From a virus (taxonomy: Duplodnaviria; Heunggongvirae; Uroviricota; Caudoviricetes), in the IMG/VR virus record IMGVR_UViG_2531839446_000012, positions 1-7,318 of that record: DNA of 7,318 bases. The stretch is one strand, 5' to 3'. This document shows, one piece after another, positions 1,537-5,984 of this stretch. Each line of letters opens with the position of its first letter. The stretch's first letter is position 1. The translations under genes and the position numbers were made by a program. The notes under the pieces were generated by a model, which ran no database searches, was not told the DNA's origin, and saw only the letters and a program-made list of their open reading frames with translations.

Positions 1537-3387
1537 TTATGCTGCCGGTGCATTTATCTCCAGCACCAGACTTTCTATCTCAACGCCATACGCTGCATTT
1601 TTTGTAACATCCGTCAGCGTCAGCGCATTCAGTCCCAGTGTCAGACCGTCTTTTATAACCTGGAATGCCGGGCCAGCCACTCCATTCAGTTTCGGAGTAA
1701 CCGTGGCACTGCCGGCGGTGAACACCAGCTCCAGCGTCTGCCAGTCGTTACCGTAATCGCCGAACTCCCCCAGCTTCGTGTTTCCGGCTTTCCTGTGATG
1801 CATCAGATTCACTCTGCCGTCAGTGGTCTGAGTGAAGTACGACATCAGGAACGGATTACCGGTACCCGTCATCGCCACACCATCAGGAACGGGAGCATCC
1901 GTATACAGATAAATCCCCAGCCCGAACTGATTGTTGGTCAGTGCGCCTGACAGGCGGAACTTACAGGTCAGTCTGCCGCCCTGTGTCAGCAGGGTAATTG
2001 CGTCATCCACCGGATGCGTCAGGGACCAGGTTTTATTGCTCTGCTTGGTGATCTTAAATACACCATCTGACAACTGAATTCCGCCATCCTTAATGCTCCA
2101 GCCCTGCGCAGCAGCCTCTCCGGCTGCCGGCAGCAGGGAGATTGTGCGAACGGACGTATCTGCAGACGGACCCGATGGCGTGTTGCCGCCGGGCGAGGGT
2201 TTGATTTCCGGTGCCTTACCACTGATGAAGGCTGAGGTGCGCCCGGCTGCGTTCAGAATAGCGGTTGCCATACGATCCGGAATAATGCTCCTGCGCGCCC
2301 ATGAACTGAAATGTGTCGGGCGGTTTGATGATACCTGGTTTCCATTCGTTCTCGATGCCGCACCGTAATATCCTGATGCCGGAATATCCGGATCTTCTGC
2401 CGGCGCGTTAGTGGCGGTATTGACGCCGTTACCGTCTGTCATGAAGGGCACAAAATAAACGCCCTCACTCTCCCTGTTTTTATACGCGCCGTACACGGTG
2501 TCGTACTGCGTGCCGTAGGTATTTTTCCAGTAATACGTCGTGTCACCACAAATCCACGGCACATCTGCAGCACTGCCACCATGGCACTGCGCGTTAAACA
2601 CGGAGAGGTCAGCACGAAACTGTGTCAGCATGGCTGTAAACAGCGCAGGTTGCTGTGCGTGGGTGGCGGCGCTCATGTCAAACTCTCCCTGCATCCAGCA
2701 CACCGCCAGCAACACATTTTTCGGGTTCTTCTGTAATGCAGCTTTAGTGCGCGCAATCAGGTCCTGATATAACGGTTTACCCACACCCCAGCGTGCCGAA
2801 TCCTGGCTGGCCCCCGTGTCCGCACTGAATGTCCCCTCAGCGCCCTGGGTGAATGCAGAACCACCACGACAGCATGGTACCAGCAGGATCCCCGCGTTAT
2901 TCGGGATATACGGAAGCAGTTTTTTGGCAATATGTAAGCCCTGGCCGACACAGCCGTACTGCCCTTTGCTCAGGTCTGCCTTCGGATGATTCAGCGTACT
3001 CATATCCTGCACATCATGCAGGCAGTGGTCGGCCGGAATAATATCGTTATATCTGCAGGCAGCCCCACCCGGCGTAACTGTACTGCGGCGCGCCAGCTGT
3101 TTAATGCGCGGATCCGGAGCATCGTATGAATCCGGAAGCGGAAGCCCTTCCCCGTAAGCCATTGCATTGGACTGCCCGGCCAGTACGATGACGTAGTACC
3201 AATCCGGCTCAGTTGCACCACTGACCACCACATCACCTTCTGCTGCAATCGCCTGCATCAGGGTATAAGGGGTTATGGCCACCGGACTACCAAACGGCTG
3301 CCAGCCCTCTTTCAGTTTGTGTGTCAGCTTTTCCGCAAGGTCTGACGGCGACGCCGCCCTGACAACATCATAATGTTTAATCGACAT
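1537..3387 (-). CDS. nanS-p: Prophage sialate 9-O-acetylesterase, NanS-p type (N-terminal DUF1737-like, SASA/SGNH esterase core, C-terminal carbohydrate-binding region)
   Basis: Intact 616-aa ORF; N-terminus MSIKHYDVVRAASPSDLAEKLTHKLKEGWQPFGSPVAI and the esterase motif VLAGQSNAMAYG match the NanS-p proteins of EHEC lambdoid prophages as recalled. SD GGGAGA lies 7 nt upstream of the ATG at 3387. It sits downstream of the tRNA cluster, as in Stx phages. Confidence 0.85.
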   Translation of the reverse strand: MSIKHYDVVRAASPSDLAEKLTHKLKEGWQPFGSPVAITPYTLMQAIAAEGDVVVSGATEPDWYYVIVLAGQSNAMAYGEGLPLPDSYDAPDPRIKQLARRSTVTPGGAACRYNDIIPADHCLHDVQDMSTLNHPKADLSKGQYGCVGQGLHIAKKLLPYIPNNAGILLVPCCRGGSAFTQGAEGTFSADTGASQDSARWGVGKPLYQDLIARTKAALQKNPKNVLLAVCWMQGEFDMSAATHAQQPALFTAMLTQFRADLSVFNAQCHGGSAADVPWICGDTTYYWKNTYGTQYDTVYGAYKNRESEGVYFVPFMTDGNGVNTATNAPAEDPDIPASGYYGAASRTNGNQVSSNRPTHFSSWARRSIIPDRMATAILNAAGRTSAFISGKAPEIKPSPGGNTPSGPSADTSVRTISLLPAAGEAAAQGWSIKDGGIQLSDGVFKITKQSNKTWSLTHPVDDAITLLTQGGRLTCKFRLSGALTNNQFGLGIYLYTDAPVPDGVAMTGTGNPFLMSYFTQTTDGRVNLMHHRKAGNTKLGEFGDYGNDWQTLELVFTAGSATVTPKLNGVAGPAFQVIKDGLTLGLNALTLTDVTKNAAYGVEIESLVLEINAPAA

Positions 3388-3701: not shown

Positions 3702-3869
3702 TCAAGCATTATGCAGGCTGTTTCTTTTTATCACCGGCCACAGCAATACCACAATGCCGCAGACCAGCACCCCATCCGCCAGCACCGACATGATTCTGCT
3801 GGTGAAATCCACCATCACCACCAGAAACAGCAGGAGTGCAGCCACAGTCAGGCGCAGTTTTACCGTCAC
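3702..3869 (-). CDS. Small hydrophobic membrane protein (55 aa, two predicted TM helices), translationally coupled to the TerB-like gene
   Basis: Not in the ORF track (GTG start, under 60 aa). The GTG at 3869-3867 overlaps the TerB-like stop as GTGA, with GGAG 10 nt upstream. Product MTVKLRLTVAALLLFLVVMVDFTSRIMSVLADGVLVCGIVVLLWPVIKRNSLHNA. Same strand and operon position as its neighbour. Confidence 0.35.
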   Translation of the reverse strand: MTVKLRLTVAALLLFLVVMVDFTSRIMSVLADGVLVCGIVVLLWPVIKRNSLHNA

Positions 3870-4298
3870 AGGTGATTCTCCAGACGAAGACCCAGAACAC
3901 CGGCAATCTCTTCCAGCACCTTGCGCTCTTCCGGCTCAATTTCGCCGTCTGCCTCCGCAATGGCCACCGCCACATCCAGCACATCTTCCGCTTCACGCGT
4001 ATCGTGTTTCACATCCTCGATCTCACGTAACGCCGCACGACGACCAATTTTAAAGTTCGTATCCAGCTGACCGATAATGGTTGCGCTAATCGCATTAATT
4101 TCTGACGTAAACGCGGACAGCGCAGGCTGATTACGCAGTACCTGTTCGATCTTCGCTTTCTAGGAAGCCTCACATTCACCATCTGCACAGGCCACCAGGT
4201 ATGCGGCGTTAATCACCACCTGTGCCAGATCGCGTTTTTCAAACTTTTTAATTTCCGTTGCCGCTCTGCGGGCTTTTTTTACCAAAAATACCAAACAT
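3866..4298 (-). pseudogene. TerB-like (tellurite-resistance TerB domain) gene carrying a +1 frameshift and an in-frame amber codon
   Basis: ATG at 4298-4296 with AAGGA SD gives MFGIFGKK, then the frame breaks in the A7 run (plus T7 at 4274-4280). The downstream frame reads ARRAATEIKKFEKRDLAQVVINAAYLVACADGECEAS*KAKIEQVL...DVLDVAVAIAEADGEIEPEERKVLEEIAGVLGLRLENHL, with TAG at 4162-4160. The two ADG...E..K repeats are the TerB signature as recalled. Removing one A restores a single frame. Confidence 0.7.
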
Positions 4299-4430: not shown

Positions 4431-4455
4431 AAAAAAGGCCCGCCGAAGCGAGCCT
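4431..4455 (-). terminator. Rho-independent terminator (minus strand) 12 nt after tRNA-Arg
   Basis: Minus-strand RNA AGGCUCGC-UUCG-GCGGGCCU (8-bp stem, UUCG tetraloop) followed by a U5-6 run. Confidence 0.65.
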
Positions 4456-4467
4456 GGAAAATAAGTG

Positions 4468-4544
4468 TGGCGCGTTGTAGTGGAGTCGAACCAGTGACCG
4501 ATTGCTTAGAAGGCAATTGCTCTGTCCGGCTGAGCTAACAACGC
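4468..4544 (-). tRNA. tRNA-Arg (anticodon UCU), phage argN/argO-like
   Basis: Hand-folded cloverleaf: acceptor GCGTTGT/ACAACGC, D-arm GCTC...GAGC, anticodon stem ATTGC/GCAAT with loop CTTCTAA, T-loop TTCGACT, discriminator G, encoded CCA. One C-C mismatch in the T-stem. Confidence 0.8.
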
Positions 4545-4644: not shown

Positions 4645-4720
4645 TGGTGGCCCTTGCTGGATTTGAACCAGCGACCTGGCGATTATGAGTCGCTCGCTCT
4701 CACCACTGAGCTAAAGGGCC
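4645..4720 (-). tRNA. tRNA-Ile2 (anticodon CAU, ileX/ileZ-like; formally could be tRNA-Met)
   Basis: 76-nt cloverleaf GGCCCTTTAGCTCAGTGGTGAGAGCGAGCGACTCATAATCGCCAGGTCGCTGGTTCAAATCCAGCAAGGGCCACCA: 7-bp acceptor, T-arm GCTGG-TTCAAAT-CCAGC, anticodon loop CTCATAA. Very close to E. coli ileX as recalled. Confidence 0.85.
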
Positions 4721-4769: not shown

Positions 4770-5820
4770 TCAAACGATTAAATCCTGAACTTCCCTGACT
4801 GTCTGCTCAAAACGTTCAGTCTCCAGCTCAACGCCAATTGCACGACGCCCGAGCGCCAGTGCCGCTTTTACCGTTGAACCTGAGCCCATAAAAAAATCTG
4901 CAACCAGGTCACCCGGACGACTGCTTGCGCTGATTATCTGCTGCAGCATTTCTGCCGGTTTTTCGCACGGATGTTTCCCGGGATAGAACTGCACCGGTTT
5001 ATGTGTCCACACATCCGTGTACGGCACCTGCGCCGTCACACCAAAATACCGCCGCAGATGCTTATATTCACTCTGCAGCTCCGCATACTGTCGGTTCAGA
5101 GAGGCATACGTATCCACCAGCTGGTGGTGGGGCTTTTCCAGTTCACCCCGCTGATGCTTCTCTTCTGCCACCCGGGCAAACAGTGCCTGTAATTTCAGAT
5201 AATCGCTTTCGTTCGGCAGCTGCCACTGACCGGCACTGAACCAGTGCGACACCATGTTTTTCTTTCCTGTGGCATCTGCAATCTGTTTTGCCGTTATCCC
5301 CAGGACAGCGCGCGCATCACGAAAGTAAGCAATCAGCGGGGCCATCACATGCTGTTTCAGTGCCCTACCCTTCGCCTCATACCCGGCATCTTTCGGACGA
5401 TACGGCCCCTGATAATGCTCTGCGAACAGAATGCGCTCTGTGGCGGGGAAATACGCCCGCAGGCTTTCCTTGTTGCACCCGTTCCAGCGTCCGGACGGCT
5501 TTTGCCCAGATGATATGGTTCAGCACGTTAAACCGCTCACGCATCATGATTTCGGTGTCAGATGCCAGACGATGGCCACAGAACAGGTAAAGACTTCCGG
5601 CAGGTTTCAGCACCCGCCAGAACTGCGCAAGACACTGGTCCAGCCACTTCAGGTAATCTTCATCACCCGCCCACTGGTTATCCCAGCCCTCGGGTTTCAC
5701 TTTGAAGTACGGCGGGTCCGTGACTATCAGGTCAACAGAATTTTCGGGTAACGACCGCATAAATTCCAGGCAGTCGGCGTTGATTAACTCACAACTGGAT
5801 ATTTTTACAGTATTAAGCAT
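4770..5820 (-). pseudogene. Orphan DNA N6-adenine methyltransferase (beta class, N6_N4_Mtase family), split by a +1 frameshift as given
   Basis: N-terminal ORF 5377-5820 has motif IV (DLIVTDPPYF) and NHIIWAK; C-terminal ORF 4770-5348 has HPCEKP and motif I (DFFMGSGST). After WAK the N frame becomes Arg-rich junk, while the +1 frame continues plausibly (PSGRWNGCNKESLRAYFPATERILFAEHYQGPYRP...). Break is at the T4 run 5500-5503 (expected T3). No restriction enzyme gene nearby. Confidence 0.7.
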
Positions 5821-5960: not shown

Positions 5961-5984
5961 AAAAAAGCCTTCAGGACTGAAGGC
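5961..5984 (-). terminator. Rho-independent terminator (minus strand) overlapping the stop of the small wHTH ORF
   Basis: Minus-strand RNA GCCUUCAG-UC-CUGAAGGC (7-8 bp stem) followed by UUUUUUAUUU. Confidence 0.6.

Follow-up and report, generated by a model that had tools for sequence, protein, structure and literature searches.

Does the adenine methyltransferase gene in this piece of Escherichia coli prophage DNA carry a real frameshift, or has an intact gene been misread by one base? The stretch analysed, 7,318 nucleotides (nt) long and referred to below as the window, is contig ADUS01000070.1 of assembly GCA_000188875.2, and the gene lies on its minus strand at 4770–5820, where it occupies 1051 nt compared with 1050 nt for the intact allele. 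It encodes a beta-class N6-adenine DNA methyltransferase of the M.EcoGII family with one base too many (349 amino acids (aa) when intact). On an evenly poised judgement, we favour, narrowly over a sequencing error, the view that the insertion is a genuine, very recent and strain-specific inactivating mutation in a decaying prophage.

One base too many in a single gene

An earlier note made from the DNA alone (the sequence-only reading) had placed motifs IV and I of the methyltransferase in different frames, and this was borne out, with the half carrying DPPY at 5377–5820 and the half carrying FMGSGST at 4770–5348. Starting at 5820, the first frame encodes MLNTVKISS, LIVTDPPYFKV and NVLNHIIWAK and then runs into 40 unrelated residues before it stops at 5377; in this 147-aa N-terminal open reading frame (ORF; EFZ72012.1/ECRN5871_5079) residues 1–107 belong to the enzyme, and the final 40 are read out of frame. 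The second frame, one base on, contains in order KPSGRWNGCNKESL, GITAKQIADATGKKNMVSHW, GKHPCEKP, DFFMGSGST and VQDLIV before its stop at 4770, and ahead of GKHPCEKP it can be quoted more fully as KPSGRWNGCNKESLRAYFPATERILFAEHYQGP followed by LGITAKQIADATGKKNMVSHWF. This C-terminal ORF is 192 aa from a GTG (191 aa in the record) and corresponds to residues 158–349 of the intact enzyme. The break falls at 5500–5503, TTTT on the plus strand and AAAA in the gene, where all relatives have three A; the insertion follows codon K107, between IIWAK and PSGRWNG. Removal of one T from this run had been suggested as the repair, and it proved exact: deleting one base of the run gives a 349-aa ORF whose product is WP_000935546.1, residue for residue.

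The repaired protein matches PF01555 (N6_N4_Mtase) over profile positions 1–219 of 221 (151.8 bits against a cut-off of 26.7, E = 3.6e-44), and the separate halves match positions 1–83 (N-terminal ORF, 57.3 bits) and 112–219 (C-terminal ORF, 90.5 bits). The motif order is that of the beta class: the catalytic motif IV, DPPY (residues 35–38; 5707–5718, minus strand), invariant in the family alignment, is N-terminal; the target recognition domain (TRD) lies between; and motif I, FMGSGST (residues 310–316; 4872–4892, minus strand), which binds S-adenosylmethionine (AdoMet) and was assigned from the sequence and the family alignment, is C-terminal. What the record contains is a single-base frame break within one real gene and not a chance pair of ORFs. 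Because the frame breaks after codon 107 and an uninterrupted frame of about 349 aa is absent from the window record, the locus is a disrupted (or misread) member of the M.EcoGI/M.EcoGII family.

A conserved two-ORF arrangement, which would have refuted the sequence-only reading, was looked for among homologues with a negative result. The family comprises 3,144 proteins at E <= 1e-10; the best 120 of these are nearly all single proteins of about 348–358 aa, with a few shorter or partial, and come from Escherichia, Shigella, Citrobacter, Salmonella, Klebsiella, Cronobacter, Pantoea, Erwinia and others. Of 96 protein-level matches in a phage collection, 94 span 80% or more of the query, and among the 60 phage matches listed all but one are in a single piece, the exception being Vibrio phage VP585 (gp53/gp54). 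The homologues have one ORF of about 350 aa, so the two-ORF arrangement is not conserved. Matches in Stx2c phages whose annotation reads 'none' were considered as pseudogenes and rejected: these records are merely unannotated, and their ORF is intact at 352 aa.

It is conceivable that an active methyltransferase is assembled from two separately produced fragments, one with DPPY and the other with the TRD and the AdoMet-binding half. Each half alone does match PF01555, and PHROGs holds two half-length families, phrog_6025 and phrog_6952, that give split annotations in some phage records. However, the PHROG halves break near residues 170–204 rather than at 107, only one of the phage matches listed is in two pieces, and translation of the second ORF would have to begin at a GTG 29 nt past the stop of the first. 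Residues 108–157, which are near invariant and partly dimer interface, are moreover in neither ORF of the window. Among 30 aligned homologues, which represent many enterobacterial genera and go down to 74% identity, HIIWAKPSGRWNGCNKESLRAYFPATERILFAEHYQGP is nearly invariant, and it overlaps the conserved dimer interface of M.EcoGII; according to the SUPREM study, M.EcoGII is a dimer in which conservation is complete over residues 97–110 and 116–140, at the modelled interface between the subunits (PMC11551740). We regard a functional split enzyme as barely credible. In the sequence as written the N-terminal fragment keeps DPPY and is without the TRD, the AdoMet-binding half and part of the dimer interface, and the C-terminal fragment is without the catalytic motif. 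If the extra A after codon 107 is present in the cell, the shift in frame would leave this truncated N-terminal product, and the locus as written should make no active enzyme.

An M.EcoGI/M.EcoGII-type methyltransferase

Judged by its sequence, the gene is a copy of the M.EcoGI/M.EcoGII-type non-specific methylase, which is already known and whose intact allele is common. M.EcoGII is a 349-aa beta-class enzyme from a prophage of E. coli O104:H4 that methylates adenine non-specifically, in any context, and it is identical at 333 of 349 residues to its paralogue M.EcoGI (PMC5778455). The repaired protein shares 325 of 350 positions with M.EcoGII (about 93%, with 2 gaps), the M.EcoGII text having been machine-read from the supplement of PMC11551740; the gaps are attributable to reading errors, and database homologues show that the odd positions of that text (NHHIWAK, GRRRAIG) are such errors. 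The two have in common a length of 349 aa, the motif order DPPY–TRD–FxGxG, carriage by a prophage and a near-identical TRD segment, which in M.EcoGII bears a helix-turn-helix (HTH), whereas the window copy differs from M.EcoGII (C227-11, EGT69837.1; DNA/RNA methyltransferase) in the +1 frameshift after codon 107 and in about 24 substitutions; the machine-read text contains a few errors. Murray et al. noted 'a very similar MTase' (methyltransferase) to M.EcoGII in phage 1720a-02 (PMC5778455), and the window gene is 93.9% identical to the gene of that phage in DNA and 94.8% in protein. More broadly, M.EcoGI and the methylases of Stx2a and Stx2c (Shiga toxin 2) phages, 1720a-02, phiP27, SfV, mEp460, cdtI, N15 (gp52), PY54 and phiKO2 show 50–96% aa identity, and, unlike the window copy, these copies are single, full-length and intact ORFs.

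Likeness to the sequence-specific enzymes YhdJ/M.EcoKII, CcrM, M.RsrI and M.MboIIA is confined to the PF01555 beta-class Rossmann core, and their TRDs are unrelated. The NCBIfam models for YhdJ/M.EcoKII (NF008572; 110.7 bits against a cut-off of 292) and CcrM (76 bits against 830) match only partially, and among solved structures the similarity is to the core domain only, of M.RsrI, CcrM, M.MboIIA and others. The gene is that of a beta-class N6-adenine methyltransferase of a lambdoid prophage, and the sequence-only reading was right to call it an orphan (solitary), since no adjacent restriction endonuclease gene was found in the window or in annotated relatives.

That reading had also noted an HTH-like insert ahead of motif I that might contribute to target recognition. 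The segment, GITAKQIADATGKKNMVSHW (residues 174–193; 5241–5300, minus strand; placed from sequence, model and PMC11551740), does lie in the TRD, and the published M.EcoGII model has a positively charged four-helix TRD with an HTH motif (PMC11551740). The part of the proposal that concerned target recognition fared less well, as the HTH-containing TRD of M.EcoGII is thought to give non-specific binding and not sequence recognition (PMC11551740). In the window the region with the modelled helices spans 5109–5342 (minus strand; PMC11551740 and our own models); a single-sequence model of residues 158–245 placed helices at 161–173, 177–184, 187–195 and 204–223, at a pLDDT (predicted local distance difference test) of 67.9. 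A full-length AlphaFold2 model of a 95%-identical protein (P0002) had a mean pLDDT of 64.9, with the surroundings of the frameshift and the linker below 50, and was kept out of fold searches. Foldseek with the TRD model was led by Cro/C1-type HTH proteins (P22 c2, C.Kpn2I, DdrO, 434 Cro, SinR and HigA2), none better than E = 0.6, and Pfam gave no HTH family on the TRD segment and nothing even at E <= 10. With the Foldseek matches not significant and the Pfam search null, the HTH assignment draws mainly on the literature. The HTH is plausibly a DNA-binding module, and not evidence for a recognition sequence.

Lysogens do not express M.EcoGII, and its constitutive expression does harm (PMC5778455). 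As the family methylates any adenine and is silent in the lysogen, a phage-specific N6-methyladenine motif would not be expected in the methylome of the uninduced strain, even if the gene were intact. An uninduced methylome would show nothing whether the gene was intact or broken, and the useful outcome here is the correct identification of the gene as M.EcoGII-type.

Real insertion or homopolymer error

By megablast with the 1051-nt query the gene was found in 2,020 of 5,426 complete E. coli genomes, and six complete genomes match it at 99.9% over 1050 nt. When aligned to three of these six (strain 14EC007, L001, and two others, L002 and L003), the gene differs by one base, with 0 substitutions and the same flanks. 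It reads GGGCAAAAGCC where the closest complete genomes read GGGCAAAGCC, or, in longer context, GGGCAAAAGCCGTCC where they read GGGCAAAGCCGTCC.

Pyrosequencing errs in homopolymer length, mostly in longer runs. Rough rates derived from 454 consensus error and from indel-to-substitution ratios put either event, a sequencing error or a mutation, at a few per cent or less per 1-kb gene, and the two are about equal. ADUS00000000 is the draft genome of E. coli RN587/1, a typical enteropathogenic E. coli (EPEC) of serotype O157:H8, and was obtained with 454 Titanium and Celera only (PMC3715677). Given a 454-only assembly and the homopolymer errors of pyrosequencing, the reality of the lesion is not to be assumed. 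One explanation for the data is that the strain holds the intact A3 allele, that the extra base is a homopolymer overcall in the Celera consensus and that the cell contains no such pair of 'ORFs'; we give this explanation serious weight, somewhat short of even.

The points that favour an overcall also weigh against a genuine mutation. With RN587/1 sequenced on 454 Titanium only, a +1 change in an A/T run is the signature error. The lesion is a singleton: by exact look-up the 147-aa frameshift product was on 1 contig and the intact 349-aa protein on 594. With an 81-nt probe that had the site at its middle, 955 complete genomes gave matches (1,344 places), not one of them at 100%, the best being 80/81 with the gap as the difference, so the insertion occurs in 0 of the 955 complete genomes with that stretch. 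Outside the extra base the gene is 100% identical to the intact allele, with 0 substitutions. An independent assembly of the lineage was looked for by exact look-up, once with the 147-aa product and once with the 616-aa esterase encoded downstream, and both returned this contig only. It should be added that the context-independent activity which the mutation would have abolished is extrapolated to this allele from 93% identity.

Set against an overcall, the run in question is of three bases, where 454 consensus errors are uncommon. There are 41 homopolymer runs of 5–8 nt in the 5.9 kb of prophage sequence, all of which agree in length with the closest complete genomes, and the only window-specific indel in these 5.9 kb is the one at a 3-mer; the other indel region, at about 1512–1529, varies among complete genomes, and the window agrees there with one or another. 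A genuine mutation would also be in keeping with further decay of the prophage, namely the insertion sequence (IS) downstream of the esterase gene and the nonsense codon in the TerB-family gene. Loss of the methylase would cost the lysogen nothing, because constitutive M.EcoGII is harmful and the gene is silent.

Frameshifted copies of the methylase are rare, scattered and unlike one another. The cluster of the 147-aa product has 5 members, in two of which, VFS19410.1 and an ENA protein, the frame is shifted elsewhere nearby. When the out-of-frame tail was compared with a set of 5.8 billion protein clusters, there were 2 matches only, E. coli DEC12A and a 247-nt contig, which joins methylase to esterase sequence and was set aside as uninformative. 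DEC12A (L006; AIHA01000050.1, 1–360) has a 91%-identical allele of the methylase with 3 indels in its first 360 nt, on a contig that starts within the gene; one of these indels adds a base within the five nucleotides that also hold the window insertion, giving GGGCGAAGACC where the intact sequence is GGGCGAAGCC. Chance, an error at the contig end or a site prone to indels could each account for this; a literature search found no paper on DEC12A. Since the DEC12A and VFS19410.1 drafts have several indels per gene, artefactual frameshifts of this methylase do occur in public assemblies, which again favours an overcall in RN587/1.

Two further explanations make use of the site itself. The first takes the insertion as real and the GGGCAAAGCC site after codon 107 as a place where indels recur, by which lysogens would silence a potentially toxic, promiscuous methylase during prophage domestication; the only hint of this is DEC12A, and we consider it quite improbable. 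In the second, the A run is a slippery or hypermutable tract that serves programmed recoding (+1 frameshifting or transcriptional slippage) or acts as an on/off switch. The lesion does lie within a homopolymer, and the DEC12A base falls in the same five nucleotides, but the insertion there is not the same one and sits in a gene that has 3 indels at a contig end. All homologues examined, moreover, have A3 or GAAG here and keep the frame; they comprise cluster members in their thousands, 94 of 96 phage records and 955 complete genomes. In addition, a run of 3–4 nt is far below known slippage or phase-variable tracts. The phase-variable Mod methyltransferases (phasevarions) resemble the window gene in that a change in repeat length alters the frame; they have long simple-sequence repeats of which both lengths are present in populations, whereas in the window the run is 3–4 nt and A4 is a singleton. 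We hold recoding or phase variation to be next to negligible in probability. A merge of collapsed paralogous alleles, GCAAAG and GCGAAG, into GCAAAAG was also considered and rejected, as a column-wise merge does not yield A4.

Should the frameshift be real, a single EPEC prophage has lost a late-expressed, broad anti-restriction methylase, any phage still released from it would be less protected against restriction in new hosts, and the loss would count as ordinary prophage decay. Should it be an artefact, the 454 era has produced another false pseudogene.

Prophage context and proposed mode of action

The methylase lies in a series of minus-strand genes. Upstream are RusA (6949–7308), a DUF1133/Q-like antiterminator-family gene (6410–6940), which defines a late-operon context, and a small ORF that ends at a terminator-like hairpin. 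This hairpin, GCCTTCAG-TCCT-CTGAAGGC at 5967–5984 (minus strand) followed by the T-run TTTTTTATTT, stands between the Q-like gene with its small ORF and the methylase start. Directly downstream of the methylase is a transfer RNA (tRNA) with a CAT anticodon (4645–4720, minus strand), called Met by ARAGORN and Ile by the NCBI annotation pipeline (PGAP) in relatives, and then tRNA-Arg (TCT; 4468–4544, minus strand) and a second terminator-like hairpin with a T-run (4436–4455, minus strand). The series continues on the same strand with the TerB pseudogene (3866–4294), a DUF3927 gene and a NanS-type esterase gene (1537–3387), and the IS element lies at about 85–1420 on the plus strand.

The three closest genomes share this gene order, which is followed there by holin, lysozyme and Rz. 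In phage Stx2_EH2201 (Stx2a) the order is Q, a 96%-identical methylase, tRNAs, stx2AB and nanS. In Stx2a phages the methylase slot is directly upstream of stx2, whereas in the window the position of stx is taken by the TerB pseudogene and the DUF3927 gene. The methylase goes unmentioned in a paper that deals with the pR' region of Stx phages. No sigma-70 promoter was found in a scan between the Q-like gene and the methylase. The hairpin at 5967–5984 may be a late terminator that is read through by Q; the number of terminators, 5 compared with 2.6 ± 1.4 expected, is not significant by itself. A position downstream of Q and of this hairpin would fit the published silence of M.EcoGI and M.EcoGII in the lysogen and their expression after induction.

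We propose that the intact enzyme, if it behaves as published for M.EcoGII, would stay silent in the lysogen and be produced once the prophage is induced. It would be a dimeric Rossmann-fold enzyme with a four-helix, HTH-containing TRD, predicted to methylate adenines in any context, and such blanket methylation would presumably shield progeny phage DNA from many restriction systems. Protection of progeny phage DNA by methylation is the accepted view and was itself put forward by deduction in the source paper.

The methylase lesion had been described as of the same type as that of the TerB-like gene, which is not so. The TerB-family gene (3866–4294) has a single in-frame TAG at 4160–4162 and is not frameshifted. 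Its 429 nt are identical in strain 14EC007 and PGAP reports an 'internal stop' in all three relatives examined, so this pseudogene predates the strain. It sits in the slot where Stx phages carry stx.

The IS element is about 1.34 kb in length and of the IS3 family (IS2-like), with orfA and orfB at 116–544 and 502–1383, and lies downstream of the esterase gene at the point where relatives continue towards holin. The same 16 nt, CGCATATTGATAATAT, are present on both of its flanks (69–84 and 1421–1436), a repeat much longer than the target duplications of 3–5 bp usual for the IS3 family. Between the element and the esterase gene, a hairpin at 1505–1535 (GCCAGCG...CGCTGGC) shows 2-nt indels among near-identical complete genomes, and the window reads as L002 and L003 at one spot and as L001 at the other. 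The esterase itself is a 616-aa NanS-p-type protein (DUF1737-SASA-DUF6645; 1537–3387, minus strand), and by exact look-up this allele is on this contig only. Compared with 14EC007, the esterase part of the window has 10 substitutions in 3.2 kb and the methylase part 1 in 2.7 kb, a contrast that suggests a recombination boundary near the tRNAs.
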